Virus record (IMG/VR): IMGVR_UViG_3300006147_000025
Direction: 5' to 3' (one strand)
Origin: a virus
DNA: 50,668 nt
A model generated the notes under the pieces. That model did no database searches. It had not been told where the DNA came from and saw only the letters and a program-made list of their open reading frames with translations. This document shows positions 3,297-50,668 of the stretch, one piece after another. Within the stretch, counting starts at the first letter, position 1. Each line of letters begins with the position of its first letter. A program made the translations under genes and the position numbers.

Positions 3297-3766
3297 TATA
3301 GAGGACTGACGTATGAATAAATAACATAGGAAGTTTTATTACCATTAGTTCCCGACATTACGAATATGTCTTTACCATACCAATTATAGGAACCATTTGA
3401 ATACGCGCTATAATTGCCGTAGTTATCCATCAGTCCGGCTATAATATCGTTGGAATTTCCATAAGGATAAACAGCATAAATGTTTTTTATTCGGTGTTTT
3501 TCCACGGTTACGTAAACGGAAATAGGCGATACAGAGCGGAGGCGATAATCAAAGTTATCCCGGTCAGTAGCTTCACACTTAAAGCCACCGTTTCCCAACT
3601 CTTCAACAGGTTCAAGACGCGTTAGGTAGTGGGTAATAGAATCCCCCAATACGAAACCGCCAAAACGCGGGTTAGCGTTCAGATTTTCAATGCTTCCCTG
3701 TTTCTTCGTTTGAGCGAAAACCACCACCGGGAGCAATAGGCAGAGCAGTAAAAGTAACTTCTTCAT
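3296..3766 (-). CDS. Secreted protein with a cleavable signal peptide (156 aa), AT-rich moron
   Basis: MKKLLLLLCLLLPVVVFAQ signal sequence. Local GC is about 35-40% against about 50% for the genome. Confidence 0.65.
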   Translation of the reverse strand: MKKLLLLLCLLLPVVVFAQTKKQGSIENLNANPRFGGFVLGDSITHYLTRLEPVEELGNGGFKCEATDRDNFDYRLRSVSPISVYVTVEKHRIKNIYAVYPYGNSNDIIAGLMDNYGNYSAYSNGSYNWYGKDIFVMSGTNGNKTSYVIYSYVSPL

Positions 3767-9530: not shown

Positions 9531-9719
9531 TTGGACTACTTGCTACACGGTATTTCGTGGGGCGAGGTACTACGAATGATGATAGACGCGCCCGGCATAG
9601 ACGATAAAGGCAAGGGAAGCACCACCCCCGGAAAGTCCGGCGGCGACGACACCGAAATAGCCCTTACAGACGACAACGCCGAGCAACTTATGAACCTTAT
9701 AAACAGCAGAAACCGATGA
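9531..9719 (+). CDS. Second chaperone reading frame (gpT-position), possibly expressed as a -1 frameshift extension
   Basis: Its frame is -1 relative to 8905-9480 and stays open from 9345. It has no ATG. Its stop overlaps the tape-measure ATG as ATGA. Confidence 0.35.
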   Translation: MDYLLHGISWGEVLRMMIDAPGIDDKGKGSTTPGKSGGDDTEIALTDDNAEQLMNLINSRNR

Positions 9720-12700: not shown

Positions 12701-13942
12701 AAAATTAAGGGCGAACTTACCATAGAAGGACAGGAACAGCTCGATATATTGAACGCCGCCCTTAACAAAGAAACAGGGGTAGCAAAGAGCGTCGGCGCGG
12801 GCTTTAAGGAAGCCTTCGGCGACCTCGGCAGTAGCCTAACCTTCCTTTCGTCGTGCTTCGGAAGCGTGACAAACGGCATAAAGAAGATGGGTATAAGCAT
12901 GGACGAGGAAACGGAAGCCATATTAGGCGACATAGGCGGAATGTTGGACGGGGCCTCCCAAATTGCCACAGGCATAGCCACCGCCAACCCGTTAAGCATT
13001 ATTCAAGGATCCATAGGCTTTTTGTCGTCAGCCTTCGACCTATTCAACAGCCGCGACCGCAAGGCCGAAAAGTCCATTAAGAAGCACGAAGAAGCCGTTA
13101 CCCGGTTGGGACGTGCCTATACAGCATTGGAACACGCCGTAGACAAAGCCCTCGGCGAAACCGTCTACCAAAACCAAAGTGCGTTAATTCAGAACCTACG
13201 GCAGCAGCAGAACGAAATACAAGGAATGATTAACGACGAAATCTCCAAGAAGAAAACCGATTGGGGACGCGTCGAGGAGTTCCAAGAACGCTACGCCGAA
13301 GCCGGGCGACAGATTGAGGACATCATCGCCGAAATCACGAAAAGCATCACCCAAACTTCCGCCGGGGACTTAGCCAACGAATTAAAGGACGCACTTATAG
13401 AAGCCTTCGAGAGCGGAGAGGACGCTGCAAAGGTATTCGGCGACGTAGCCGACAACGTGCTTAAAAACGCTGTTTCCAACGCCCTAAAACTTCAATTTTT
13501 GGAGAAGCCATTGCAGAACGCAATTAAGCAGCTTCAAAAAGATATGGGCTTCGACGCAGAAGGAAACGGCAGTTTCGACGGACTAACCCAAGCCGAACAA
13601 GACCGCTTTAAGGCAGCGGTAGCCGCAGCCGGGCAGAACTTCAAGGCGGCGATGGATATGTATAAAGACCTATTCGCCGAATTGGAAGACGAAAGCGACC
13701 CGACAAGCCTAAGCGGTGCAATAAAGGGGGCAAGCCAAGAGAGTATAGACCTATTGGCAGGCCAGACCAACGCCGTAAGGCAGAACCAAGTTATAGCCAT
13801 TGAAATTTTTAGGCAGCAGCTTATCCACCTTTCAAGCATGGATAACCGATTAGGGAACATAGCCGGAAGCCTTATATCCATACTTAACCGTTTGGGAATA
13901 GACGACGGCGACGACCTACGAAGCCAAGGAATAACCGACTAA
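9716..13942 (+). CDS. Tape measure protein (1408 aa)
   Basis: Length, extensive coiled-coil sequence, hydrophobic segments near the N terminus and conserved position. Confidence 0.85.
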   Translation: MNIQGGGLSFDISGTNKQLISVLNESKKAIQEFQGAAVLGGKQMDGAFTRAAQAIDKAFAQIDVVVDTNKAAIAELEAEYKRLGVEASKALSAGHKEEAAALQTKQAQLREEITLRQTVINEAGKQADALLREEQQLRKAEEAARNNANAQTSLRTQLRNVREQLGQMEEAGLRGTETFRKLQQEAGRLANAIGGAQTQARIFSHDNAGLQGMIAGLSGVAGAFSTAQGAVALFAGENENLQKIMLKVQALMSITMGLQQVANALNKDSAFMLVTVAKAKEMLAAANLKLAGALGISTVAAQALMATLTLGLSAAITGIIYIISKLNSKQAEAKKAADEFNKKVAEAAGKPIAAYRALQAEWIQLTDNLKDREKWVQDNADKFNDLGYKVRNAKEAEDLLIKNSAKFVEACILKAKALAAQNLAAEKYQEIIKKQAEIDAMPDTVSQFVQTSSGQYGGVTGYYIEVANSAKARAKQELTEMQDAAKTLIEQQTQFTAQEQAILAQIGNQAGQVVEGSVATAEKELQRLRGLYNDAATDAERSKLARQIAAQQKEVDRLSLKTSSGGSGGSGGNGNNKDPFAEQLAQRKTLYEKYLKRITSSDETVRNAAASEFAPLLKEGSSYLQYLENQCAAIEAKTAKTATDLKNLTTLNNEIANATRESVISAFDTQLQQELAQCKTISEMLATIERRRSELAGDNSDVDNAKAEILNTAEADTRQQAKEETKALLQEYAGYLQEKIDFEESYARKKELLSRQAAESATDAERQVAEAALAALEKKREEYSKRSGSEQYDALLEEYKTYQEQETAILEKYAAQRALAEQQGNASMIAQINAKQQSELSKLAAQRLMASESWGQLFSDISRLSTTTINRLLNDINSRKINLSAEFNPADLKAINDQLQKAKNELATRNPFLALRQSLSELRAAMKAEKLLDSDDPFVKSLEEKKKQYADYTDAINSSGTTLAGAAKEAYADLLAEGSSYVDMLRKKIATLNGLKIKGELTIEGQEQLDILNAALNKETGVAKSVGAGFKEAFGDLGSSLTFLSSCFGSVTNGIKKMGISMDEETEAILGDIGGMLDGASQIATGIATANPLSIIQGSIGFLSSAFDLFNSRDRKAEKSIKKHEEAVTRLGRAYTALEHAVDKALGETVYQNQSALIQNLRQQQNEIQGMINDEISKKKTDWGRVEEFQERYAEAGRQIEDIIAEITKSITQTSAGDLANELKDALIEAFESGEDAAKVFGDVADNVLKNAVSNALKLQFLEKPLQNAIKQLQKDMGFDAEGNGSFDGLTQAEQDRFKAAVAAAGQNFKAAMDMYKDLFAELEDESDPTSLSGAIKGASQESIDLLAGQTNAVRQNQVIAIEIFRQQLIHLSSMDNRLGNIAGSLISILNRLGIDDGDDLRSQGITD

Positions 13943-19955: not shown

Positions 19956-20216
19956 ATGGTAAACAGGAACGGCGACCAAGTAAGCGTGCAAGTTTCGGTA
20001 ATTGGCCCGGTCAACTTCGACGGCGGCAGCTTCCGAAAAGATACCCCCTTTTGCGTCAAGAACGACGGAGAAGCGGCGGTAGTGCTTGAAGTAAACCTTT
20101 GGGGAATGCCCGAAGGCGAATTTATTGCCACACGCTTTGAAACAGGGTGGAACCCCGAAATAGTCCGCGAGATAAAATCAACAAGTCAAAAAACCGCCCT
20201 TCTTTGGGGCTATTAA
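19956..20216 (+). CDS. Hypothetical protein (86 aa), first gene of the DGR unit
   Basis: ATG ORF between the candidate promoter and the target gene. Confidence 0.5.
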   Translation: MVNRNGDQVSVQVSVIGPVNFDGGSFRKDTPFCVKNDGEAAVVLEVNLWGMPEGEFIATRFETGWNPEIVREIKSTSQKTALLWGY

Positions 20217-20230
20217 AACAACATACGAAC

Positions 20231-21562
20231 ATGGGTTTAATCATAGCAGCGGGCAACACTAAGCCCGCCTTCCCTTACGATTATTACTACGGCGTGAAAA
20301 TCAAGACGACCGTAGCCGCTACCACGTTGGAAAGAGTGGGCCGCCCGGAACTTCACGTTTCCCTGCCTATTCAGTCCAAAATGCGCCGCTGTGTGCTTCG
20401 TGACAACGGAACGGTAGCCTATTACCTTCACGCCACCGACAGCACCAAGCGCGACAACGGAGCCGCCGCCAACCTTACCGGGGCGGACGGTCAAGTAATG
20501 GTAGAAATTCCGCGCCACTACCGAAAATTTGAGTTCGACGGCACGGACTTAGTAGCCCTTATTTCCGAGTACCCCCTGCCGGGCTTCCACGAAGTCCCCA
20601 AGATGTACCGCAGTGCTTACGAAGCCACCGTAGACCGCACCGTTACGGCTACGCCTAAATTGGCTTCCGTCGTCAACGCTACCGCCGCTTTCCGTGGTGG
20701 AAACAATAACACCGCGTGGGATGGAACATACCGCAGCCTTCTCGGACTTCCGGCTACACAAATTTCCCTTACCAACTTCCGCAACTACGCCCGCAACCGT
20801 GGCGAAGCCGGACTTAACGGCAAAGGGTGGAACTGCGACTTATACGCCGCGCAGCTTACAACCTATTGGCTGTTCGTCATTGAATACGCCAACCTTAACT
20901 GCCAAGCGGCATTTAACCCGCAGCCCGACGCAAACGGTTACAAACAGGGCGGACTCGGCGCAGGCGTAACAACGCTTAATAGTACGAAGTGGAACACATT
21001 TAACGGCTACTACCCGTTCGTCCCGTGTGGCTACACCAACAGCCTCGGCAACGCTACGGGCGTGGTAGAGTTCACAATGCCCACCGAATACGACGCTACC
21101 CCCTTAGTCGTACAGGTTCCAAGTTACCGAGGGTTAGAAAACCCCTTTGGGCATATTTGGAGCTGGACGGACGGCTGCAAGTGTGAGATACAGAGCGACG
21201 CGGACGGCGGGCTGTCAAAGTTCTACGTTTGCAACGACCCGGCGCAGTTCCAAGACAGCAGCTATAACGGCTACGACTACCGGGGCGACCTTCCCCGCAA
21301 GGAAGGTTACGTTAAGGCCATACTTGCCGGAGAGTTCGGCGAGAATATGCCGCGAGAGGTTGGCGGCGGTTCTACGACCTACTTCTCGGACTACTTCTAT
21401 ACCAATATACCCGCTTCCGGCGTGGCTATGAGGGGCGTTTTGTTCGGCGGTGGTGCGTCCGGCGGCGCGTATGCCGGGCTTGCGTTCGCGCATACGGCCG
21501 GCGCGGCTACGGCTACGGATGCGCTCCTCGGCTCCCGGCTTTGCTTTATACCCGCCGCGTAG
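20231..21562 (+). CDS. DGR target protein 1 (443 aa), probable receptor-binding protein with a C-terminal variable ligand-binding fold
   Basis: Start taken at ATG 20231. The last 39 codons are VR1, ending ...GSRLCFIPAA. It lies directly after the tail fibre gene. Confidence 0.85.
   Translation: MGLIIAAGNTKPAFPYDYYYGVKIKTTVAATTLERVGRPELHVSLPIQSKMRRCVLRDNGTVAYYLHATDSTKRDNGAAANLTGADGQVMVEIPRHYRKFEFDGTDLVALISEYPLPGFHEVPKMYRSAYEATVDRTVTATPKLASVVNATAAFRGGNNNTAWDGTYRSLLGLPATQISLTNFRNYARNRGEAGLNGKGWNCDLYAAQLTTYWLFVIEYANLNCQAAFNPQPDANGYKQGGLGAGVTTLNSTKWNTFNGYYPFVPCGYTNSLGNATGVVEFTMPTEYDATPLVVQVPSYRGLENPFGHIWSWTDGCKCEIQSDADGGLSKFYVCNDPAQFQDSSYNGYDYRGDLPRKEGYVKAILAGEFGENMPREVGGGSTTYFSDYFYTNIPASGVAMRGVLFGGGASGGAYAGLAFAHTAGAATATDALLGSRLCFIPAA
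21433..21545 (+). repeat. DGR variable region VR1
   Basis: 113 nt aligned without gaps to the TR at 22035-22147. There are 23 mismatches, all at TR adenines (23 of 29 A positions), and no other mismatch. Confidence 0.95.
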
Positions 21563-21602
21563 CACGTCCACGCCCCACGACCTACAAAAACACAATAACC
21601 CG

Positions 21603-21639
21603 CCCCAACCGCCGCGTACCGTTTATTCGGCGGTTGGGG
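21603..21639. other. 12-bp perfect GC-rich hairpin (ccccaaccgccg-N13-cggcggttgggg) 57 nt downstream of VR1
   Basis: Read directly from the sequence. Could be a terminator, a DGR target-recognition structure, or both. Confidence 0.5.
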
Positions 21640-21657
21640 TCAATAAAAAACAAAAAT

Positions 21658-22011
21658 ATGGATACCCAAACGAACCCCGGACACGACGACGGAACCCTCG
21701 CCTTCCTGAATATTCCACAGGACGAGAATAACAAGCACTTCAACTGCCACGAAACCACGCAGCAGAAGTTAATTAACCTTTCCTTCTTCGTGCTTGACTT
21801 CATCGACGGAGTTAAGACCAAGTTCGGGGCGGAACGCTTCTTAGTGAAGATAAAGCACCCGGACAACAGCCCCGACAAGGCGGGGCAAGTGGAAAAGTTC
21901 TTTACCAATTCCACCGAAATAAAGTATGTGCTTCGTGAGATTAAGAAGCGTAACGCCTTCCCGCGAAAAGTCACTATGAGGGCTTCGGGAACGCGCTACT
22001 ACTTTGAATAA
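21658..22011 (+). CDS. Putative DGR accessory protein in the Avd position but not Avd-like (117 aa)
   Basis: Start taken at ATG 21658 (MDTQTNPG...). It lies between the target gene and the TR. The sequence looks beta-rich and basic at the C terminus, not a four-helix bundle. Confidence 0.5.
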   Translation: MDTQTNPGHDDGTLAFLNIPQDENNKHFNCHETTQQKLINLSFFVLDFIDGVKTKFGAERFLVKIKHPDNSPDKAGQVEKFFTNSTEIKYVLREIKKRNAFPRKVTMRASGTRYYFE

Positions 22012-22034: not shown

Positions 22035-22147
22035 GGGCGTTTTGTTCGGCGGTAATGCGAACAACGGCGCGAATGCCGGGCTTGCGAACGCGAATACGAA
22101 CAACGCGGCTACGAATACGAATGCGAACATCGGCTCCCGGAATTACT
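22035..22147 (+). repeat. DGR template repeat (TR)
   Basis: Non-coding. Contains 12 AAY triplets plus 5 single As in the VR reading frame. Matches VR1 over 113 nt and VR2 over 88 nt, differing only at adenines. Confidence 0.95.
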
Positions 22148-22238: not shown

Positions 22239-23321
22239 TTGGTAGGCTACACGCCGAAGAACGCCATAGAATCAGCAAAGCAAAAAGAAGTGAAACGACG
22301 CGGAAACATATACGGCGAATTTAGCAGCGTGGAGAATATAACCCACGCTATAATTACGTCGCCAAGCCGCAACAAGAAGAAACCCCGGCGACTTGCAAAG
22401 ACCGTCGAGGAACAGGCGAAGGAAATACACGCCCTTCTCGTTAGCGATAGTTTCCGCCCGTCGCCTTCTTATACCGTTAAAATTCACGACCCCAAAGAAC
22501 GCCTTCTTACCATACTTCCCGAAACGCCCGACAAGATAGTACACCGCGCCCTGTTAAACGTGCTTCGCCCCATTTGGGACAAAGTATTTATTTCCGCTTG
22601 TTATTGCGGAGTGAAGCGGCGCGGGCAACTTCCGGCAGCTAAAAAGGTTTTGGACTTCTTACAGGAAGCCCGGCAGAGCGGCCCGGTATATTGTCTTAAA
22701 TTCGACATAAGGAAGTATTACCCTTCCATAAACCACGAAGTAATGAAGGGAATAGTACGCCGAAGCATTAAGGACAAACGGATCCTTAAAATTTTGGACG
22801 ACATTATAGACAGCGAACCCGGCATTATGCTCGGTAGCCCGCTTAGTCCATACTTCGCCAACCTTTATATTACGCCGTTGTGCCATTGGCTCAAGGAGAA
22901 GAAGGGCGTTAAATACCTTATTGACTACGCCGACGACTTTGTTATACTTTCCAACGATAAAGAGGAATTGCACCGTTTACTCGCCGAGATTGAGGACTAC
23001 ACGACCAACAAATTAAAAATAGAGGTCAAGAGGAATAAGCAAATTTTCCCGGTAGCCTTAGACCGAAGCGACAAACACGGCCGGGGCATTGACTTTTTAG
23101 GCTTCGTCTTTAACCTTAACGAAACACGGATAAGGAAGGGTATTAAGCGAAACCTTTGCCGGAAGTTGGCGAAGTTACGGAAAGCCAAACACCCCGTACC
23201 CGAAAAGGAGTTTTTACAGGCTCTTGCGTCGTGGTGGGGTTGGCTTAAATACAGCGATAGCGACTATTTTATTAACAAACTAAACAAGAAAAGCCCGTAT
23301 GAAATCAAATTCAGACGTTAG
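22239..23321 (+). CDS. DGR reverse transcriptase (360 aa)
   Basis: N terminus RRGNIYGEFSSVENI. Also KFDIRKYYPSINH, LGSPLSPYFANLY, the YADD box (IDYADDFVIL) and IDFLGF. TTG start, with no in-frame ATG near it. Confidence 0.9.
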   Translation: MVGYTPKNAIESAKQKEVKRRGNIYGEFSSVENITHAIITSPSRNKKKPRRLAKTVEEQAKEIHALLVSDSFRPSPSYTVKIHDPKERLLTILPETPDKIVHRALLNVLRPIWDKVFISACYCGVKRRGQLPAAKKVLDFLQEARQSGPVYCLKFDIRKYYPSINHEVMKGIVRRSIKDKRILKILDDIIDSEPGIMLGSPLSPYFANLYITPLCHWLKEKKGVKYLIDYADDFVILSNDKEELHRLLAEIEDYTTNKLKIEVKRNKQIFPVALDRSDKHGRGIDFLGFVFNLNETRIRKGIKRNLCRKLAKLRKAKHPVPEKEFLQALASWWGWLKYSDSDYFINKLNKKSPYEIKFRR

Positions 23322-30532: not shown

Positions 30533-32638
30533 ATGAGCAGACAAGTAACACTAAAACGCCTTACCCTTGTAAACTTTAAGGGTTTGCGAAACGTAGTCGT
30601 AGAGTTCGGCGACGGCGTTACGACCATAAGCGGACGTAACGGAACCGGGAAGACCACAATAGCGGACTCCTTCGCGTGGCTTCTTTGGGGCAAAGACAGC
30701 GAAGGAAACTCCGACTCCAAATTTGGGATAAAGACCAACGATGCGGAAGGTAACTTTATTCCCGACCTTGAACACGGAGCAACCGGGCTTTTCGACGTGG
30801 TAGACACCGAAACCGGGGAAGCGTCAAGCGTGGAACTTCGCCGCGTCTATGTCGAGGAGTGGAAGACCCCCAAAGGAAGCACCGAGCGCACCCTGTCCGG
30901 GCACCATACCGACTACTTCTTTAACGGCGTACCCTTGAAGAAGGCAGAATACGACGCAAAGGTAGCCGCAATAATTCCCGAAGACCTCTTTAAGGTCATT
31001 ACGGATCCGTACTACTTCCTTACGCTTCATTGGAAGGCACAACGCGAATACTTGCTTACGATGGCGGGCAAGATTAACGACGCGGACGTAGCAGCCACCC
31101 GCGAAGAATTTGCCGCCCTTCTGCACCGGGTAACAGGCAAGACGATGGAAGAATACAAAAAGGAAATTTCGGTACGTCGTGGCAGAATTGAAGCGCAGTT
31201 AGATAAGATACCGACCCGCAAAGACGAAGCCACCCGAAACACCCCGGTAGCCCCGGACTACGCCGCCCTTGAAAGCGAGAAGGCGCAGATACAGGAAGAC
31301 CTCGCCAACATTGACGCGGCGGCAACTTCCGAAGCAGAAGCCAACCGCGTAGCCTACGAACAGGCGGCAAAGATACAGGCGGAAATCAACACTAAGCGCG
31401 ACGCACAGGCTAAGGCATTACAGGACGCGAAGGAAGCAGCCCGCGCAGCAGCTTACGAAACCAACCGCGTAGCCGACGAAGCCGCCCGCGACCTCGCCCA
31501 AATACAGCGCGACGAGGAAAGCGAAAACAAATATTACAGCCGGGAGAAGTCAGTAATTACGGCTTCCATAGCCACTGCCAAACGCCGTAAAGAGGGCTAC
31601 GAAGCCCAAGTAGCCGACCTTCGCAAGCGTTGGGAAGCCGTGAATAACGAACAATTCCAAGAACAGCAAGCCCCGACCGCCGGCCCGCTTATTTGCCCGG
31701 TATTCGGTCATCAGTGCGCCGACCCCGGAGCAGCCAACCGCCATCAGTGCGACGCAGCCGCAGCCCTTGAATCCTTCCGCAAGAACCAAGACACCGCCCG
31801 CGCCGCCTTCATTGCCAACCAAACCGCCCGACTTGACAAGATGGACGCGGAAGGCCAGGAACTAAACAGGCTTATAGCGGCACAGGACGCGGAAATAAAA
31901 CGCCTTGAAGCGGAAGCCGTCGCCCTTGATACCAAGCACAACGCCGCCGTACAGGACTACGCCACAAAGAAGGCGACCTATAACAACACCATAGCCGCCA
32001 ACCCCCGCGTAAGCACCGACCCGCAAATAGACCCGCAGACGCTCCCGACGTGGGTAGCACTTCAAAAGGAGATAGACCAACTTAACGCCCGCCGTGCAGC
32101 CGTGACAGCTCCGACAACACAGGACGCCGCCGCAGAGCGTCAGCTGAGCCGGGCGACCCTTCGCGCCCTCCTTTCCGAGATAGACCAAAAACTCGGACTT
32201 CGCGCCACCATTAAAGCCGCCGAAGCCCGTATAGTGGAACTTGATAAGGAAGCCGCTACGTTGGCACAGGAAAAGGCAACACTTCAAACCGAAGAAGCCC
32301 TAATAGACGACTTCGTAAGATGTCGTATGGAAGAAGTAGAACGCCGTGTAAACGGATTGTTCGACGGCGTGGAGTTCCGAATGTATAAGACGCTTGTAAA
32401 CGGCGAAAAAGAGCCGGACTGCGTGGCCTACATTGGCGGGGTACGATACCAAGACAAGAACCACGCCGGGCAGATTAACGCCGGATTAGCCGTGATTAAC
32501 GCCCTTTGTGCCTTCCACGGAGTAACCGCCCCTATAATTGTCGATAACGCCGAGAGTGTAAACGACTTCATCCCCGTAAAAAGCCAATTAGTCCGGCTTG
32601 TAGTCACTACGGGGGAGTTCCAAGTAACAAACCACTAA
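30533..32638 (+). CDS. SbcC/Rad50-like AAA ATPase with a long central coiled coil (701 aa)
   Basis: N-terminal LTLVNFKGLRN...ISGRNGTGKTTIADSF (Walker A). Ala/Gln/Glu-rich coil with a central C-x6-C at 31694-31717. C-terminal IIVDNAESV (Walker B / D-loop like). Confidence 0.7.
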   Translation: MSRQVTLKRLTLVNFKGLRNVVVEFGDGVTTISGRNGTGKTTIADSFAWLLWGKDSEGNSDSKFGIKTNDAEGNFIPDLEHGATGLFDVVDTETGEASSVELRRVYVEEWKTPKGSTERTLSGHHTDYFFNGVPLKKAEYDAKVAAIIPEDLFKVITDPYYFLTLHWKAQREYLLTMAGKINDADVAATREEFAALLHRVTGKTMEEYKKEISVRRGRIEAQLDKIPTRKDEATRNTPVAPDYAALESEKAQIQEDLANIDAAATSEAEANRVAYEQAAKIQAEINTKRDAQAKALQDAKEAARAAAYETNRVADEAARDLAQIQRDEESENKYYSREKSVITASIATAKRRKEGYEAQVADLRKRWEAVNNEQFQEQQAPTAGPLICPVFGHQCADPGAANRHQCDAAAALESFRKNQDTARAAFIANQTARLDKMDAEGQELNRLIAAQDAEIKRLEAEAVALDTKHNAAVQDYATKKATYNNTIAANPRVSTDPQIDPQTLPTWVALQKEIDQLNARRAAVTAPTTQDAAAERQLSRATLRALLSEIDQKLGLRATIKAAEARIVELDKEAATLAQEKATLQTEEALIDDFVRCRMEEVERRVNGLFDGVEFRMYKTLVNGEKEPDCVAYIGGVRYQDKNHAGQINAGLAVINALCAFHGVTAPIIVDNAESVNDFIPVKSQLVRLVVTTGEFQVTNH

Positions 32639-32652
32639 AAAATATTCCGACC

Positions 32653-33555
32653 ATGTGCAAGACCCCGGAACTTCCGGCTACCATAGTAGCCGCAAAAGAA
32701 AAATTTGAAGTTGCATTACGCGACGCTTCGGCGATAGACATCGTAAACAACTTCGGCGCAGCCTTCAACGCCGCGAAAGTAATAACCCTTCTACGCGAAG
32801 CCCTTACCGAAGAAGTGATGGAAAAGGTATTTATGCCTTTGATGAACACAAAAGTAGGCTTTCGCACCGACCGCGACGGCAAGCCCGACAAGAACGGACG
32901 AGTAAAGCCGCCCTACGAAGTGGCTACCGTCCGCGAAGCGATAATAGATGCCGCAATAATTGGGCTTCTTCCTACCGGGAACCAGTTCAACATCATCAGC
33001 GGCACGATGTACCCCACGAAAGAAGGCTATACCGCCCTTCTAAAAAAGATTGGAGCGAAATACATTATCGACGTTCAACAGGACACAAGCCAAAACCCTG
33101 CCTACGCCGTATTCCCGTGCAAAGTAACGTATTCCTTTAACGGCGATAAAAATAGCCTTACGGTTCAAGCCACCGTCCGCCGCGACCAATACAGCAGCAA
33201 CGACCAACTACGCGGAAAAGCGGAACGCCGCGCCAAGAAAGCCCTATACGAATACCTTACGGGAACAGACTACGGCGACGCGGACGAAACGAGCAGCCGC
33301 CCCAACATGGTAGTAGATACCGTGGCTGTCGAGATAAAGGAGCAGGCCAACACCGGCCCCGCTATTGGCTTCGACGACGCGGAAACGGTAATGGCCGAAG
33401 AAGTCCACGCCCCGGCACAGGCAGAACCCGCGCCGCAGACATACGCCGCCCCGGTTCAGACACAAGCAGCTCCGGCACCCCAACCACAGGCACAGCCCCA
33501 GGCCGACCCACAACCGGCCCCGGCTTATAATACACCAAGAAAGCCCAATTTCTAA
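32653..33555 (+). CDS. Putative single-strand annealing / recombination protein with a P/Q/A-rich tail (300 aa)
   Basis: Assignment rests on position between the SbcC-like ATPase and the MBL nuclease. Low-complexity C terminus. Confidence 0.35.
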   Translation: MCKTPELPATIVAAKEKFEVALRDASAIDIVNNFGAAFNAAKVITLLREALTEEVMEKVFMPLMNTKVGFRTDRDGKPDKNGRVKPPYEVATVREAIIDAAIIGLLPTGNQFNIISGTMYPTKEGYTALLKKIGAKYIIDVQQDTSQNPAYAVFPCKVTYSFNGDKNSLTVQATVRRDQYSSNDQLRGKAERRAKKALYEYLTGTDYGDADETSSRPNMVVDTVAVEIKEQANTGPAIGFDDAETVMAEEVHAPAQAEPAPQTYAAPVQTQAAPAPQPQAQPQADPQPAPAYNTPRKPNF

Positions 33556-34307
33556 TGGTACTTCGTGTTTTAGGTTCAAGCAGCAGCGGCAACGCCTACA
33601 TTTTGGAGAATGTGGGCGAAGCCCTGCTCATTGAAGCCGGGGTAAACTTCAAGAAGGTAGTAGCCGCGTTGGAAGGCAATATTTCCAAAGTGGTAGGCTG
33701 TCTTATAACCCACGAACACGGCGACCACGCCGGACGGATTAACGAAGTATTGAACGCCGTTATTCCCGTCTACGCTACCCAAGGCACAATAGACAACGCC
33801 AAGGTAAAAAGCGAGTGGAAGCCGCGCACGTTGGAGCGAGAAGGCAACGGCTACAAGGTTCAGCAGATAGGAGGCTTTAAGGTTATACCGTTCGCCACGA
33901 AGCACGACTGCGCCGAACCCGTGGGCTTCTACATTTGGCACCCGGAAACGGGCGGCATTTTGTTCGCTACCGATACCTACTACCTACCTAACACCTTCAA
34001 AGGCTTAAACAACGTCCTTATAGAATGCAACTACGACCCGGAAATATTAGACCGCAACGTAGAGGAAGGCCGACTAATTCCGACCCTTCGGGAAAGAGTG
34101 AGGGAAAGCCACCTAAGTATAGACACCTGTATAGACGCACTTAAAGCCAACGACCTGAAGGCGGTAAATAACATCGTCCTAATACACCTTTCGGCGGGTA
34201 ACGGCGACCCCGTAGCCTTCAAAGATAGAGTTTACAGGGCGACCGGGAAGCGGGTACACATAGCAGCCCCCGGACTTAGTATTAACTTCAATAAAACGCC
34301 CTTCTAA
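33555..34307 (+). CDS. Metallo-beta-lactamase-fold hydrolase / nuclease (250 aa)
   Basis: THEHGDHAG (HxHxDH motif) with later His/Asp residues. TAATG overlap with the upstream gene. Confidence 0.75.
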   Translation: MVLRVLGSSSSGNAYILENVGEALLIEAGVNFKKVVAALEGNISKVVGCLITHEHGDHAGRINEVLNAVIPVYATQGTIDNAKVKSEWKPRTLEREGNGYKVQQIGGFKVIPFATKHDCAEPVGFYIWHPETGGILFATDTYYLPNTFKGLNNVLIECNYDPEILDRNVEEGRLIPTLRERVRESHLSIDTCIDALKANDLKAVNNIVLIHLSAGNGDPVAFKDRVYRATGKRVHIAAPGLSINFNKTPF

Positions 34308-34309
34308 CT

Positions 34310-34714
34310 ATGATTAAAGGCTTTAATTCCGAAACCGCGCCCTTAACCGAGTACGAAGAAAACGTATTACTTCCGCTCGTCCTTCGTGGGTTGAAAACCA
34401 AGATAGGAAAGGAAAACGCAGTAACAAACCGTACAATCGTGCAGCGGCTTAACATAGCCGGATATACGGTAACAGAACCCCGGATAAGGAAACTTATTAA
34501 CCATATCCGAATGACCGACCTACTACCGGGCCTTATAGCCACGTCCGGCGGCTACTTCTTAGCGACTTCGGAAGCGGAGTTATTGGACTACGAACAAAGC
34601 CTTATAGGACGCGAGGACGCTATAAAACAAGTTCGGTTAGCCATAGCCCGGCAACGGCGGATCCTTTACAACGACGCTAACCGACCCGAAGAAAACAAAC
34701 CCGAAATATTTTAA
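34310..34714 (+). CDS. Hypothetical protein, possibly winged-helix (134 aa)
   Basis: ATG ORF. No firm motif recognised. Confidence 0.5.
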   Translation: MIKGFNSETAPLTEYEENVLLPLVLRGLKTKIGKENAVTNRTIVQRLNIAGYTVTEPRIRKLINHIRMTDLLPGLIATSGGYFLATSEAELLDYEQSLIGREDAIKQVRLAIARQRRILYNDANRPEENKPEIF

Positions 34715-34738
34715 TAACCCATTAACAAACAACCCCAA

Positions 34739-35308
34739 ATGAAGAAAATAGCACTTTTCCGAAAGTACGGCGAATCCGCCGAGTTCGTAGCCCGCTTCGA
34801 CAGCGTAGAAGAAGCAAGCGACCAAGTGAAGGACATCATCAACGAAGACGAAGACGCTAACGTATTCGACTTCTACACCGAGGAACAGGAGTACACCGAC
34901 ATCCGCGAACGCGTGAAGACATACGCCGACGCTTGCGAAGTCTTAGGCATAGCCGAAATGGACGAAAAGGCTTTTAAGGCCTGCGGCTTCCGTCCCGACG
35001 AGATAGCTCGCCGTAAGTTGGAAACCATAACCGAAGCCCTTAACGAAGGTTGGCGGCCGGATTGGAACAATACCAACGAATACAAGTATTTCCCCTGGTT
35101 CCGTATTCTTCCCGGCAAGGGTAAGGACGCAGAGGGTAAACCCGACGGCGCGTCTGCCGGGCTTGCGGACGCGCATACGAACCGCGCGGCTCCGTCTACG
35201 AATGCGTACTTCGGCTCCCGGCTTTGCTTCCACGACAGCGACATCGCCGCCTACGCGGGCGACACGTTCCGCGACCTTTACGCCCAAATCTTAGTAGAAA
35301 AATTCTAA
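34739..35308 (+). CDS. DGR target protein 2 (189 aa), remote small target in the early/replication module
   Basis: Contains VR2 in the same codon phase as VR1 (...GKPDGASAGLADAHTNRAAPSTNAYFGSRLCF...). Confidence 0.85.
   Translation: MKKIALFRKYGESAEFVARFDSVEEASDQVKDIINEDEDANVFDFYTEEQEYTDIRERVKTYADACEVLGIAEMDEKAFKACGFRPDEIARRKLETITEALNEGWRPDWNNTNEYKYFPWFRILPGKGKDAEGKPDGASAGLADAHTNRAAPSTNAYFGSRLCFHDSDIAAYAGDTFRDLYAQILVEKF
35141..35228 (+). repeat. DGR variable region VR2
   Basis: 88 nt aligned without gaps to TR 22060-22147. There are 17 mismatches, all at TR adenines (17 of 27), and no other mismatch. Confidence 0.93.
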
Positions 35309-35321
35309 CCCCATACCCGAA

Positions 35322-35612
35322 ATGACAAAGAAAGAATTAGCCGCCAAAGTTGCGGCAGCTTGCAGCGGAACGGAAGCCCACGGCACACCCGCCGCCGTGG
35401 TGGAAGAAGTAATTACAGCCACCCTCGGCGTAATTAAGGACGTGGTTTATTGTGGCGGAGAAGTAACCCTCCGGGGCTTCGGCACCTTCGGACACAAGAA
35501 CCGAAAAGCCAAGACCGCCCGAAATATCAGCACAGGCGAACCCGTCCACGTCCCGGCGCGGAAAGTGGTAAGTTTCAAACCCGCCGCAGACTTCAACGTA
35601 GCACAGGACTAA
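35322..35612 (+). CDS. HU/IHF-family DNA-binding protein (96 aa)
   Basis: MTKKELAAKVA...VTLRGFGTFGHKNRKAKTARNISTGEPVHVPARKVVSFKPA. Confidence 0.85.
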   Translation: MTKKELAAKVAAACSGTEAHGTPAAVVEEVITATLGVIKDVVYCGGEVTLRGFGTFGHKNRKAKTARNISTGEPVHVPARKVVSFKPAADFNVAQD

Positions 35613-39011: not shown

Positions 39012-40487
39012 ATGAGCAACAACGGAATAAACGTACTTTCCCTTTTTGACGGGATGAGCTGCGGGCAAATAGCGTTAAGGGAAGCCGGGATTAAGGTAAA
39101 CAAATACTTTGCTTCCGAAATTGACAAATTCGCCATACAGCAGACACAGCACAATTTCCCGGACACGGTGCAGCTCGGCAGTGTTACAGGAGTACGCGCC
39201 GCCGACCTTCCCCACATAGACCTCCTTATAGGCGGTTCGCCGTGCCAAGGGTTCAGCTTTGCCGGAAAGCAGTTAAATTTTAACGACCCCCGAAGCGTCC
39301 TATTCTTTGAATACGTCCGTATTCTTCGGGAGATACAGGAGTATAACCCCGGCGTTTTATTCCTACTTGAAAACGTCCGTATGCGTAAGGAGTGCGAACA
39401 AGTCATTACCGACCAATTAGGATTAGAACCCGTCGTAATAAATTCCGCCTTAGTTTCAGCACAAAACCGCGTCCGCTTGTATTGGACTAACATAAGGACA
39501 CGCGAAGAAGCAAACCTATTCGACACGAAGGTATTTACCAACATCCCACAGCCGGAAGACCGGGGTATATACCTACGCGATATTTTAGAAGACGAGGTAG
39601 AACCCCGCTACGTCCTTACTTCCCAACGAATAAAGAAACTGATAGAACACCATCAACGGCAAGCCGAAGCCGGTACCGGCTTCGTCTTCCACCCAAGGGC
39701 GGAAGACGAAAAAAGTAACACCCTTCGCGTAGGCGGGAGCTGCCACGACGATATAGTATTACTTCAAGGGGAACGCGCCGCCCGTTGCGTGGCTGTTCGT
39801 GGGCGTTTCAACCCGGAAACAGGAAGGAACGAGCAAACGCCGGAACTTCGCCCGGACGGTAAGACTAACTGCCTTACAAGCGTGGAGAAGGACAATTTAA
39901 TTTACATAGAATCCGCGTGTTTGACACCACGCCGAACCGAATACGGCAAGGCAATACGTCGCCAATACGAAGCCGGAGAGATACAGGAAAGCCGCCACAA
40001 TATGACCGAATTAGAACCCCGTACCGACGGAAAAACCAATACACTAACAACGGTTCAAAAAGATAACCTAATACTTCAACTTCCCCACGGCTTCAACGCG
40101 GGCGGCATATTCCGCGACAAAGCCCCTACGGTTACTTCAAGCCGCTACGAAGCCAACAACATCGTACAAAGCCGCGAAGTAATACAACTTAACCCTGACA
40201 CCGAAAGCGGCGGAAAGCAGCCATACCAACAAAACCGCGTCTATTCAGCCGACGGCATAACCCCGGCTTTATGTTCAGCACACGCCGGACACGCGCCCGC
40301 AGTTCTGACACCCGACGCAGTTCTACGCCGTCTTACACCGACCGAGTGCAGCCGCCTACAAACTATTCCCGATTGGTACGAATGGGTTTGCAGTGATAGC
40401 CAAGCGTACCGAATGCTCGGTAACGGGTGGACGGTAGACGTAATAAAGCATATTTTCCAATTCATAAACACCGAGAATTTACAATGA
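39012..40487 (+). CDS. DNA (cytosine-5) methyltransferase (491 aa)
   Basis: Motifs LFDGMSCG (I), GGSPCQGFS (IV), LLENV (VI), QNRVRLY (VIII), TPTECSRLQTIP (IX) and GNGWTV (X). Confidence 0.9.
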   Translation: MSNNGINVLSLFDGMSCGQIALREAGIKVNKYFASEIDKFAIQQTQHNFPDTVQLGSVTGVRAADLPHIDLLIGGSPCQGFSFAGKQLNFNDPRSVLFFEYVRILREIQEYNPGVLFLLENVRMRKECEQVITDQLGLEPVVINSALVSAQNRVRLYWTNIRTREEANLFDTKVFTNIPQPEDRGIYLRDILEDEVEPRYVLTSQRIKKLIEHHQRQAEAGTGFVFHPRAEDEKSNTLRVGGSCHDDIVLLQGERAARCVAVRGRFNPETGRNEQTPELRPDGKTNCLTSVEKDNLIYIESACLTPRRTEYGKAIRRQYEAGEIQESRHNMTELEPRTDGKTNTLTTVQKDNLILQLPHGFNAGGIFRDKAPTVTSSRYEANNIVQSREVIQLNPDTESGGKQPYQQNRVYSADGITPALCSAHAGHAPAVLTPDAVLRRLTPTECSRLQTIPDWYEWVCSDSQAYRMLGNGWTVDVIKHIFQFINTENLQ

Positions 40488-44743: not shown

Positions 44744-46162
44744 ATGGCAAAGAAGAAAATACAGGAAGGAGCAGCTACCCCCGCCAAGGCCCTCGCGCCA
44801 TTGGTGCAAAGCGTCGTATTGAAGTTGTCGGATTTGGAACTGAACAAAGGGCAAATTCCCGGAGTTCCGAAGAACCCGCGAATGATGAAGGACGACGTAA
44901 AATTTAGGAAGTTGAAAGCGTCGATAGAGGACGACCCCGAAATGTTGGCACTTCGGGAAGTGCTTATTTACCAATACGACGGGCATAACGTCATTATAGG
45001 CGGAAATATGCGTTACCGCGCCCTTAAAGAATTGGGCTACACGGAAACAATAGCGAAAATAATACCGCCGGAAACAACGCCGGAGAAACTACGCGCCATT
45101 GTCATAAAGGATAACGTAGCCTTCGGCGATTGGGATTATAACGACTTAGCCAACGAATGGGAGTTAGACGACCTCGACCGTTGGGCCGTGGAACTTCCCG
45201 ACATTGACACAGGGCAAGCCGAAGAAGAAGCGGAGGAAGACGACTTTAACGTAGGCGAGAACTTACCGAGCAAGCCGAAGGCGAAATACGGGAATGTCTA
45301 CCGATTGGGAAACCACCGCCTAATCTGTGGCGACAGCACGAAGCCGGAAGTATTGGATATCCTGATAGGCGAAGGCAAAGTAGACCTATTCTTAACCGAC
45401 CCGCCCTATAACGTGGACTATTCAAGCAAGAACGAAGCCCTAAACGCCGCCGACAAAGGGAACCGGGTACAAAAGGACATAGCCAACGACAAGATGGGCG
45501 ACGAAGCCTTTTTAGAGTTCCTTAAAGCCGCCTTCGACAACGCCAACCGCTACCTCAAGAAGGGCGGCGCGTTCTACATTTGGCACGCCGGAACGGAAGG
45601 GCTTAACTTCAAATTGGCGGTTAAGTCCGTGGGTTGGGAGTTGAAGCAGATACTTATATGGGTTAAAAACAACATGGTATTAGGGCGACAGGACTACCAA
45701 TGGAAGCACGAACCCTGCCTATACGGTTGGAAGCCCGGCGCGTCGCACTTCTTCGTAAACCGCCGCGACCTATTGACCGTAACCGAGGACGAAGCCCCGG
45801 ACATAGATGCAATGACGAAGGACGAGTTAAAAGCCCTTCTTCGTTCGCTATTGGGCGAAGCCACCCCGACCACGACAATACACGAGGATAAGCCGCTACG
45901 TTCAGCCGACCACCCCACGATGAAGCCTATAAAACTTATGGGACGCGCCATTAAGAACAGCACACGCCCCGGCGAAGTAGTGTTAGACCTATTCGGCGGA
46001 AGCGGAAGCACCCTTATGGCGGCCGAGCAGTTGGCCCGCTCCTGTTATACCGTGGAATTAGACCCCGCCTATATAGACGTGATAATAAAGCGGTGGGAAG
46101 AATACACGGGCGACAAAGCGGAACTATTAGGCAACTTCGCCCCGGACGAGGAAGCAGAATAA
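44744..46162 (+). CDS. ParB-like nuclease domain fused to an N6/N4 DNA methyltransferase (472 aa)
   Basis: N-terminal ParB-like segment (VIIGGNMRYRALKELG). DPPYN motif (LFLTDPPYNVDY). C-terminal FGGSGST AdoMet-binding motif. Confidence 0.85.
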   Translation: MAKKKIQEGAATPAKALAPLVQSVVLKLSDLELNKGQIPGVPKNPRMMKDDVKFRKLKASIEDDPEMLALREVLIYQYDGHNVIIGGNMRYRALKELGYTETIAKIIPPETTPEKLRAIVIKDNVAFGDWDYNDLANEWELDDLDRWAVELPDIDTGQAEEEAEEDDFNVGENLPSKPKAKYGNVYRLGNHRLICGDSTKPEVLDILIGEGKVDLFLTDPPYNVDYSSKNEALNAADKGNRVQKDIANDKMGDEAFLEFLKAAFDNANRYLKKGGAFYIWHAGTEGLNFKLAVKSVGWELKQILIWVKNNMVLGRQDYQWKHEPCLYGWKPGASHFFVNRRDLLTVTEDEAPDIDAMTKDELKALLRSLLGEATPTTTIHEDKPLRSADHPTMKPIKLMGRAIKNSTRPGEVVLDLFGGSGSTLMAAEQLARSCYTVELDPAYIDVIIKRWEEYTGDKAELLGNFAPDEEAE

Positions 46163-49775: not shown

Positions 49776-50668
49776 ATGCCCGATTATACCGAAAACCGCC
49801 TTATAGTCCGACTTCGTGGCTTCGATGCCCGGCACTACGCCAAGACGCGGCAGTACGCCCGCCAAGTGGAACGGCTCTATAACACCGCTTGCGACGAGAT
49901 AGCCCGCGCCGCCGGACGTATAACCATACCCGAAGACGGCGTTTTTAGTTTCGACGACTTCCCGGCTACACGTCGCCAAGCCGAAGGCATACTTTCCCGA
50001 CTTACGAAGAAGGTAGAAGCCGTTATAACCACCGGGACGCGGACGGAGTGGCAAGCGGCCTGCGACAAAAGCGATGCCTTCTTAGGTTCCATACTTCGCA
50101 CGTCCCGGCTAACCCCGGAAGAAGCGGAGAAGTACCAAGCCCGGAACCTCGAAGCCTTACAAGCCTTCCAACAGCGTAAAGCCGGAGGTTTGGGGCTTAG
50201 TCAGCGCGTATGGAAGTACACGGAAGAATTTAAGACGGCGTTAGAATTGGGTATAGACGTAGCCGTAGGCGAAGGGCGCAGCGCACAGCAGCTCTCCCGC
50301 GACCTTCGCCAATACCTACAACAGCCGGACAAACTATTTAGGCGCGTCCGTGACAAGGGCGGAAACCTTCGGCTTAGTAAGGCGGCTAAGATGTACCACC
50401 CCGGCCAAGGCGTTTACAGGAGTGCAGCCAAGAACGCCGAGCGTTTGGCGCGGACGGAAGTAAATATGGCGTACAGGGAAGCCGAATACTTACGATGGCA
50501 ACAATTAGATTTTGTCGTAGGCTTCCGCGTGATGTTGAGCAACAACCACACCACGAAGGACAGCAAGGGGAAGACCGTACCGCTAACCGACATTTGCGAC
50601 GAGTTGGCGGGCGACTACCCCAAAACTTTCAAGTTCCTCGGTTGGCACCCGCAATGCCGTTGCGTCGT
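49776..50668 (+). CDS. Head morphogenesis protein (Mu gpF / SPP1 gp7-like), N-terminal part; continues at position 78 of the window (1-77 duplicate 50592-50668)
   Basis: ATG at 49776 with no stop before the window end. ...AERLARTEVNMAYREAEY...LGWHPQCRCVV matches the Phage_Mu_F signature. Confidence 0.8.
   Translation, partial: MPDYTENRLIVRLRGFDARHYAKTRQYARQVERLYNTACDEIARAAGRITIPEDGVFSFDDFPATRRQAEGILSRLTKKVEAVITTGTRTEWQAACDKSDAFLGSILRTSRLTPEEAEKYQARNLEALQAFQQRKAGGLGLSQRVWKYTEEFKTALELGIDVAVGEGRSAQQLSRDLRQYLQQPDKLFRRVRDKGGNLRLSKAAKMYHPGQGVYRSAAKNAERLARTEVNMAYREAEYLRWQQLDFVVGFRVMLSNNHTTKDSKGKTVPLTDICDELAGDYPKTFKFLGWHPQCRCV
50592..50668. repeat. 77-bp terminal direct repeat, right copy
   Basis: Identical to 1-77. 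Confidence 0.97.

Follow-up and report, generated by a model that had tools for sequence, protein, structure and literature searches.

The window analysed here, a 50,668-nt stretch of viral DNA (IMG/VR virus record IMGVR_UViG_3300006147_000025), contains a diversity-generating retroelement (DGR) whose single template repeat (TR) is matched by two variable repeats, VR1 at the end of a tail-protein gene and VR2 in a small gene, target gene 2, that lies 13.1 kb from the TR on the same strand and outside the structural module. We hold it to be nearly certain that this DGR does target the remote gene 2 and is still active on it, and that the family to which its product belongs is targeted by DGRs recurrently. 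The more inclusive reading, according to which this active target of a recurrent family also encodes an early cytoplasmic binder of a variable intracellular ligand, appears to us, taken as a whole, to have a little more than an even chance of being correct. The coordinates of the features are collected in Table 1.

VR2 aligns to the TR over 88 nt without gaps and with 17 mismatches, all of them at TR adenines (17 of 27), while the non-A positions are identical throughout (61/61); with 27 A residues within 88 nt the probability that 17 mismatches would all fall on A by chance is about 2e-9. Scanning of both strands of the window with 45-nt sub-windows of the TR revealed three copies only, namely the TR itself, VR1 (offset -602) and VR2 (offset +13081). 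VR2 is in frame in target gene 2 and in the same codon phase as VR1, the TR adenines being placed mostly at codon positions 1-2 (AAY, ACG, ATC), and VR1 reaches 25 nt further in the 5' direction (TR 22035 vs 22060). The two variable repeats differ from each other at most of the variable codons, at A-derived positions. An earlier note on this DNA, made from the sequence alone, had described the A-only alignment, the common codon phase, the shorter 5' side of VR2 and the independent diversification of the two repeats from one TR, and all these claims were confirmed by our realignment, codon table and three-way alignment; its count of 27 residues after the VR needs correction, as 25 residues of the protein lie beyond the TR-homologous stretch.

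True diversification accounts for approximately 12 of the 17 mismatches, which fall in 11 codons (136, 139, 144, 146, 148, 149, 152, 153, 155, 157 and 158). The two 5' mismatches (TR 22060-61) are in codon 135, which is CCC in VR2 and AAC in the TR; this codon is invariant in the 15 members that we read of the surrounding 90%-identity cluster and encodes Pro in 97 of 106 homologues (distinct 189-aa sequences, about 58–94% identical), and it either lies outside the homing tract or else is strongly selected. The three 3' mismatches (TR 22141, 22142 and 22145) belong to the Leu-Cys codons 162-163, CTT TGC in VR2 versus AAT TAC in the TR; they are the same in VR1 and invariant in all 106 homologues, and the alignment identifies them as the difference between the initiation of mutagenic homing element (IMH) of a VR and its TR counterpart (IMH*) and not as diversification. 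Because codon 135 is nearly invariant and codons 162-163 are fixed, the rewritten core is limited to the shorter tract given in Table 1.

The 3' element itself comprises codons 162-163 and the GC-rich run preceding them. In the three-way alignment VR1 and VR2 have the 19-nt TCGGCTCCCGGCTTTGCTT in common, while the TR ends with ...GGAATTACTG at the same place. The element encodes GSRLCF, the most conserved motif of the protein family (codons 159-164 are invariant in 105–106 of the 106 homologues), and the same IMH-like/IMH*-like arrangement is present in the IMG/VR contig L080 (the loci compared are cited by our numbers). By analogy with the Bordetella phage BPP-1 model this element would act as the IMH. 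The search for a BPP-1-like GC-rich hairpin or cruciform after the VRs gave no convincing outcome: downstream of VR2 the best candidate, at 35244-35262, is an imperfect and weak hairpin with a fold z-score of +0.85, and inverted repeats of at least 6 nt were not found there. A perfect 12-bp inverted repeat, CCCCAACCGCCG / CGGCGGTTGGGG, with a 13-nt loop is located at 21603-21639, 57 nt beyond VR1 and within the annotated start of the open reading frame (ORF) that occupies the usual position of Avd; it may serve as a terminator or as a hairpin for target recognition by the DGR. This accessory ORF, whose true start is probably internal, has no Pfam Avd match and may be taken for Avd from its position. 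The TR lies immediately upstream of the reverse transcriptase (RT) gene, which is a single intact ORF.

The diversification of VR2 is ongoing, as judged from population variation in public assemblies. The 90%-identity cluster nearest to the target 2 protein contains 758 distinct sequences, and in the 15 members read essentially all differences occur at the 11 A-containing TR codons. Prophages L007-L010, whose flanks are 96–99.8% identical to the window, differ from the window gene by 14 nt, and 14 of these 14 differences are inside VR2, all at TR-A sites. Over the 106 homologues the entropy is 2.87 bits at the 11 diversified sites vs 0.50 elsewhere, and at the A-containing codons 1372 of 1378 residues (99.6%) belong to the set accessible by A-to-N changes. 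The variation is thus restricted to A-derived positions, and outside the rewritten codons the protein is under purifying selection. The opposite possibility raised in the earlier note, a fixed pseudogene-like remnant, is contradicted by this variation and by the gene being intact and conserved in hundreds of relatives. A contig of Paramuribaculum intestinale DSM 100749 (L090, NZ_PUED01000184.1) is 97.9% identical to positions 30872-35143 of the window (4.3 kb compared) and ends exactly at 35143, being followed by adapter-like sequence, as would be expected if the assembly broke off at a VR that is heterogeneous or repeated. The host of the phage is probably a member of the Muribaculaceae, Paramuribaculum intestinale.

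The target 2 protein matches phrog_11581 (E 1.8e-33 over residues 27-186), a family listed in PHROG with unknown function. It has 572 homologues in a collection of 5.8 billion proteins, and a profile search of 1.84 billion representatives yielded 2705 clusters at 50% identity with E<=1e-3, or 1208 with E<=1e-10. Most members are 120–200 aa long and have in common a core of about 130 aa (residues ~53-186), which some proteins contain in two or three copies. In the target 2 protein the conserved part extends over residues ~53-189, while residues 1-52 form a variable N-terminal part that is not conserved in the family and is dispensable in many members. The conserved motifs are RVKTYEDAC..LG, EIA..KL..I..ALNEGW.PDW and KYYPWF, followed by the variable segment and then by GSRLCFK..ELA.YAG.QF..LY. 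The family is found mainly in Bacteroidota (Muribaculaceae, Barnesiella, Prevotella, Bacteroidales, Chitinophagales and Chryseobacterium).

At the nucleotide level, megablast of 8 kb around target gene 2 against the phage collection produced no match; tblastn returned 11 phage records at E<=1e-3, with 32–34% identity to proteins of PV4-TP1, BI-TP1 and LoVEphages. In every complete or long enough genome tested for a TR partner, the family member was an A-only match to its own, different TR. Bacteroides phage Versailles, which has the same SbcC / MBL / NinB synteny (MBL, metallo-beta-lactamase), shows 9 mismatches in 60 nt, every one of them at an A. In Phocaeicola phage PV4-TP1 (LoVEphage/Quimby-like) the VR/TR alignment extends over 122 nt with non-A mismatches only at its two edges. 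The crAss-like phage cr56_1 (Buchavirus) encodes a 135-aa protein, gp09, with 0 non-A and 14 A mismatches to a TR located, together with the RT, 43–54 kb away; this gene is not annotated as a DGR target. The gene of Bacteroides phage BT-TP2, with 14 A mismatches, follows directly on the cro-like genes and is divided between the two ends of the record. The IMG/VR contig L080 contains a cassette (9825-12193) in which TR, RT and an Avd-like ORF are immediately preceded by two tandem copies.

When 135 loci were scanned automatically, a TR partner was located within the available DNA in 12 of them (metagenomic or metagenome-assembled genome loci, L080 included), any TR of the other 123 lying beyond the ±10 kb covered. 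In most of the 12, TR and RT directly follow one, two or three family genes arranged in tandem. Such cassettes, with one to three tandem copies adjacent to the RT, were observed in early phage regions in L080, L098-L100, L103-L105, L107, L111 and L116, and no tail target was found in the DNA covered at these loci (±10 kb for L080, L104, L105 and L111). L105 derives from a Mu-like transposable phage, of which it represents the early region, and in L111 a methyltransferase, a primase and a PAPS-reductase-like gene are the neighbours; early or DNA-metabolism contexts are present in Versailles, PV4-TP1, cr56_1, BT-TP2, L105 and L111. These comparisons show that DGRs of Bacteroidota phages have repeatedly taken members of this family as substrates and that there are two arrangements, a remote second target in addition to a tail target or, in early regions, one to three tandem copies that adjoin TR and RT.

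The relation of the target 2 protein to the tail target is limited to the segment written by the TR. Its match to the tail family phrog_5302 is weak and confined to residues 136-166, and profile comparison with the tail protein (hhalign) aligned only 29 TR-written residues. The Versailles homologue (ON453897.1, 10181-10762; L001 5863-6444) is annotated as a 'tail protein', and the sequence comparison suggests that this label most likely arises from the resemblance of the TR-written segment to the tail target; it is probably a propagating mis-annotation.

The protein is acidic (isoelectric point 4.67) and hydrophilic, with a maximum 19-residue hydropathy of 0.45, and hydropathy analysis revealed no signal peptide or membrane segment. 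Two AlphaFold2 models, one of the full protein with 66 sequences and one of the core with 120, had predicted local distance difference test scores (pLDDT) of 81.0 and 81.8 and agree in a confident, mostly helical core, with predicted helices at ~55-58, 62-69, 76-81, 86-102, 167-176 and 178-185; the last two, which are conserved, follow the VR, while the VR segment itself has pLDDT <50 in both. Foldseek found no significant match to either model in the PDB (best E 2.7 and 4.0) and uncharacterised phage proteins only in BFVD. Pfam has no family for the target 2 protein or for 66 family members, longer multi-domain ones included, and NCBIfam gave no meaningful match for any of them; no DNA-binding or nuclease domain was detected in the target 2 protein in these scans. 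No sequence match was obtained to C-type lectin or FGE-sulfatase domain models in Pfam or to solved variable proteins in the PDB (E >=0.27), and the best hit of the PDB profile search, Cas12a (E 0.27), is at chance level and was rejected as noise. The minimal C-type-lectin-like fold proposed in the earlier note was therefore not recovered and is not supported by the models, although with the VR loop at such low pLDDT the protein may still have it.

The surroundings of target gene 2 are in substance those described in the earlier note, which had placed it 13 kb from the RT among non-structural genes: an MBL-fold hydrolase, the phrog_2113 ORF and an HU-type protein were all found there. The gene is separated from its co-directional neighbours by gaps of 24 nt and 13 nt, HU being on the 13-nt side. 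The order SbcC / 300-aa protein / MBL / NinB-like / small protein / HU is kept in 64–69 of 73 IMG/VR loci, and HU is adjacent to the homologue of target gene 2 in 52 of the 73. The co-directional early block, the soluble acidic product and the early or DNA-metabolism loci of the homologues fit the proposal that the protein is non-structural. Some relatives contain a second paralogue between the SbcC-like gene and the gene of the 300-aa protein, ~2.8 kb upstream of the main copy (L037, L039, L040, L043-L050, L053 and L067). In L040 the similarity between the two small-protein copies is A-biased, which suggests three targets for one TR in this phage.

If the system works according to the BPP-1 model, the RT would copy TR RNA with adenine-specific errors and the resulting cDNA, acting in trans, would home to tracts that combine an IMH-like 3' element with upstream homology, and in this way could serve sites 13 kb off or, as in cr56_1, on the opposite strand. 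Such cDNA would replace both VR1 in the tail protein and VR2, despite the distance of the latter from the TR. Judged from the gene context, the target 2 protein may be made early in the lytic cycle together with the recombination and replication genes and may stay in the cytoplasm, where the TR-written patch on the predicted, mostly helical scaffold would bind a variable intracellular ligand. This putative ligand would most plausibly be a polymorphic host defence or host-takeover target or a protein of a competitor, and the DGR would thereby adapt the intracellular compatibility of the phage as well as its adsorption. We favour such a role in phage–host or phage–phage conflict at roughly even odds. 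Several points weigh against this interpretation. The cytoplasmic location is deduced from gene context and from the absence of export signals, and the position of the gene is circumstantial with respect to timing and location. The 73 syntenic loci come from related phages, so that their synteny is partly inherited and they are not independent. The DGR linkage of most family members is extrapolated from the cases with enough sequence. The VR segment is unmodelled, and its surface exposure is therefore assumed from other DGR proteins. Finally, no defence or anti-defence model of PADLOC matched the target 2 protein. The neighbouring MBL-fold hydrolase scored 21 bits against the anti-Pycsar Apyc1 model, too weak relative to the cut-off of 50, and we rejected this score as support for an anti-defence island.

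Phage DGR targets are classically receptor-binding proteins, and in the VR-coded segment target gene 2 shares its Mtd-like motif with the tail protein, so the product could instead be a virion-associated or released accessory binder (a second receptor-binding or decoration protein, or an adhesin for mucus or glycans) encoded outside the structural block. Two-target phage DGRs with a second structural target do exist (tentaclins, PMC10743442; Bacuni, PMC8143477), and the label of the Versailles homologue points in the same direction, but as discussed above this label most likely mirrors the TR-written segment only. An attachment function is difficult to reconcile with a protein that has no signal peptide, membrane segment, Ig-like or other attachment domain according to Pfam and hydropathy, that has no conserved N-terminal part, and that is encoded in early or DNA-metabolism blocks in at least six lineages; moreover, changes in the remote VR of Bacuni left the host range unaltered (PMC8143477), although the Bacuni protein is no detectable homologue. 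We consider this explanation unlikely. The synteny with the SbcC-like, MBL, NinB-like and HU genes, which Versailles has too, would also be explained if the protein were a component or regulator of recombination or replication with its variable patch recognising a variable DNA-associated host factor; a distant family member (37% identity, L011) also adjoins an MBL hydrolase, and the acidic composition could fit a DNA mimic. This linkage is not kept in PV4-TP1, cr56_1, BT-TP2, L080, L105 and L111, where methyltransferases, small early genes, a primase or the RT are the neighbours instead, and the lack of any detected DNA-binding or nuclease domain likewise speaks against it, leaving this possibility distinctly doubtful in our judgement.

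The TR-written segment common to the tail target, together with the early position of the gene in a temperate phage, may also call to mind a receptor-masking or superinfection-exclusion factor, a tail-like scaffold that would block the receptor or shield the progeny from inactivation by cell debris. Since each of the two repeats is diversified on its own, and most variable codons differ between them, a matched specificity is not inherited; the protein also has no export signal, and in L080, L104, L105 and L111 the RT-adjacent targets are family copies only, with no tail target within the ±10 kb covered. We regard such a function as very improbable. As to a non-adaptive by-product, in which TR/VR homology was captured in a tolerant gene and is rewritten without benefit or is decaying, degenerate TR/VR pairs with non-A substitutions have been described in some crAss-like phages. 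VR2, by contrast, has no non-A mismatch, hundreds of relatives have an intact ORF that is strongly conserved beyond the VR, A-only matches to different TRs recur in at least six lineages, and some DGR cassettes have members of this family as their sole adjacent targets; this explanation is essentially excluded. Returning to the intracellular binder, it may be speculated further that the phrog_11581-like proteins constitute a very large and hitherto undefined class of dedicated DGR substrates on a non-C-type-lectin scaffold, a kind of intracellular 'antibody' with a DGR-rewritten paratope directed against polymorphic host defences or competitors, and that some DGRs, in the phages with tandem copies beside the RT, primarily diversify these proteins and not a tail fibre. 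We offer this generalisation tentatively, as a possibility that is more probably wrong than right.

Distal non-structural targets of phage DGRs have been described before. The Quimbyvirus DGR has two VRs, and its distal target (ORF 80/84) is non-structural and located in a defence/counter-defence island (Benler et al. 2021, PMC8008677); a second VR, distal from the RT and near methyltransferases, was noted in four species of induced prophages of Bacteroidota, neighbours that were cited as a 'counter-defence' context for distal VRs (Nature 2025, PMC12629997). In the window, two large methyltransferase genes (39012-40487 and 44744-46162) are situated in the early/late transition region. The target 2 protein has homologues in PV4-TP1 and the LoVEphages, to which it is ~33% identical between residues 45 and 188 and with which it shares the PHROG family signal; the VR of the PV4-TP1 protein matches the TR of that phage in an A-only manner, and the arrangement is alike in that one of two targets of a single TR lies far from the RT and outside the structural genes. 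The neighbours of the PV4-TP1 gene (methyltransferases, a TIGR02757 protein and a tRNA ligase) are those of the published Quimbyvirus locus (PMC8008677), and it is from this context and not from the Quimbyvirus sequence that we infer the correspondence of the window protein to the published ORF. The two systems differ in several respects: the window phage is lambdoid-like with a Muribaculaceae host, its target lies on the TR strand among recombination genes and its RT is intact, whereas in Quimbyvirus the target is on the opposite strand in a methyltransferase island and the RT is frameshifted; the target is called a C-type lectin protein in the publications, which our models of the window protein do not reproduce. 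The description of target gene 2 as the most novel element of the window was therefore overstated, as homologous distal targets are known (PMC8008677, PMC12629997). What is added here is the generalisation at the family level and the connection to cultured systems.

Like Mtd of BPP-1 (and TvpA and AvpA), the target 2 protein belongs to a TR/VR pair with adenine mutagenesis, AAY codons and an IMH-like element, and as in Mtd the VR is near the C-terminus and ends in a G-x-R-x-C-like motif. Mtd, however, is a tail-fibre receptor-binding protein encoded beside the RT, whereas the window protein is small, early-encoded and 13 kb away; it differs from all three in having two helices after the VR and no detectable C-type lectin or FGE-sulfatase-type domain. 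In bacteria, the known multi-target DGRs diversify surface lipoproteins. One TR with several VRs, some of them distant and independently diversified, is known from Legionella, Treponema and the Bacuni phages of Bacteroides uniformis (PMC8143477). The remote Bacuni target is fimbrial-tip-like (DUF1566 / Fib_succ_major) (PMC8143477), no Bacuni record is among the 11 phage records matched at E<=1e-3 by tblastn, and an equivalence of the two targets was rejected. Tentaclins are also second DGR targets of two-target cassettes in gut phages, and were described as proteins of 313–649 aa that begin with a C-type lectin domain, continue with Ig-like domains and end in a conserved C-terminal Ig anchor, encoded adjacent to the cassette and presumed to be anchored in the virion (PMC10743442). 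The window protein, which has 189 aa and its VR towards the C-terminus, and in which neither Pfam nor the model shows an Ig-like domain, is not one of them. The Hankyphage DGR was set aside as not relevant, its only target being the tail fibre. The DGR-diversified cytoplasmic conflict sensors of multicellular bacteria are reportedly large multidomain proteins of the STAND NTPase type. As hypervariable intracellular binders in conflict these sensors (Dore et al. 2024, PMC10907252) provide a conceptual analogue; they are bacterial proteins, and we claim no homology. Two papers on the DGRs of crAss-like phages, which do not mention a remote target like that of cr56_1, and the description of PV4-TP1 and BT-TP2 treat tail-type targets only, and Roux et al. 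(2021) state that remote targets could not be detected in their own DGR survey. In the literature library searched we found no paper that defines the phrog_11581-like family or its recurrence across phage orders, which does not amount to evidence of absence.

Gut phages very often carry a DGR, and nearly all discussion of these elements concerns their action on tail proteins and thereby on host range. Our results on this locus and its family show that in many Bacteroidota phages DGR mutagenesis is directed at a small, early and probably cytoplasmic protein as well, and that its carriers span crAss-like, LoVEphage/Quimby-like, Mu-like and lambdoid-like phages. As remote targets are missed by the large DGR surveys by design, this class of targets is poorly characterised. 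The carriers in culture include Versailles with B. caecimuris, BT-TP2 with B. thetaiotaomicron and PV4-TP1 with P. vulgatus, and the cultured host of a close prophage is P. intestinale DSM 100749, so the role of non-structural phage DGR targets is directly testable.

Table 1. Features of the DGR, its targets and the surrounding genome; positions are those of the window unless a locus is given, and a single number is the one position reported.
Feature	Position	Strand	Remarks
Target gene 2	34739..35308	+	ORF, ATG start, 189 aa, phrog_11581 family, acidic, soluble
VR2	35141..35228	+	gapless alignment to TR 22060-22147
VR2 diversified core	35144..35210	+	11 codons, aa 136-158; TR codons AAY, ACG or ATC
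IMH-like 3' element TCGGCTCCCGGCTTTGCTT	35211..35229	+	identical in VR1 at 21528-21546; TR has TCGGCTCCCGGAATTACTG (IMH*-like)
TR	22035..22147	+	between Avd-position ORF and RT gene; encodes Asn-rich template (GVLFGGNANNGANAGLANANTNNAATNTNANIGSRNY*)
VR1	21433..21545	+	3' end of tail-protein gene; 0 non-A, 23 A mismatches to TR over 113 nt
Target gene 1	20147..21562	+	471-aa tail protein; phrog_5302 E 1e-130
Accessory ORF, usual Avd position	21541..22011	+	phrog_19665 E 1.5e-32, residues 50-156
DGR reverse transcriptase	22239..23321	+	360 aa; RVT_1 E 5.8e-17, phrog_1423 E 5.5e-93
cr56_1 gp09	L005 4980-5387	opposite to TR strand	TR at L006 ~3300-3380
SbcC-like ATPase	30533-32638	+	early block
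300-aa protein (p300)	32653-33555	+	early block
MBL-fold hydrolase	33555-34307	+	early block
phrog_2113 ORF	34310-34714	+	syntenic Versailles ORF annotated NinB/Orf
HU-type DNA-binding protein	35322-35612	+	Bac_DNA_binding E 2.3e-23
phrog_35807 ORF	35616		follows HU in early array
DNA methyltransferases, two large	39012-40487 and 44744-46162		one fused to ParB-like domain
HNH/resolvase-like protein	42681		downstream of early array genes
Terminase	46639		PHROG/Pfam
Portal	48122		PHROG/Pfam
Major head protein	5568		PHROG/Pfam
1408-aa ORF	9716-13942		taken as tape-measure gene from size and position
Tail protein	15668		PHROG/Pfam
Endolysin	24359		PHROG/Pfam
Integrase	25845	-	PHROG/Pfam
Repressor-like gene	27873	-	PHROG/Pfam

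The first 77 nt of the window are identical to its last 77 nt (1-77 = 50592-50668), and the record is therefore a circular assembly of 50,591 bp. The PHROG and Pfam matches suggest a temperate phage with a siphovirus-like, lambdoid-like layout, in which a long co-directional early array follows the repressor-like gene. A 784-codon open frame with similarity to head-morphogenesis proteins crosses the junction and continues into the ORF at 13-1482. The N-terminal part of the latter matches the PHROG entry 'Bxa ADP-ribosyl transferase' (E 2e-15), which may reflect only a shared head-morphogenesis domain.

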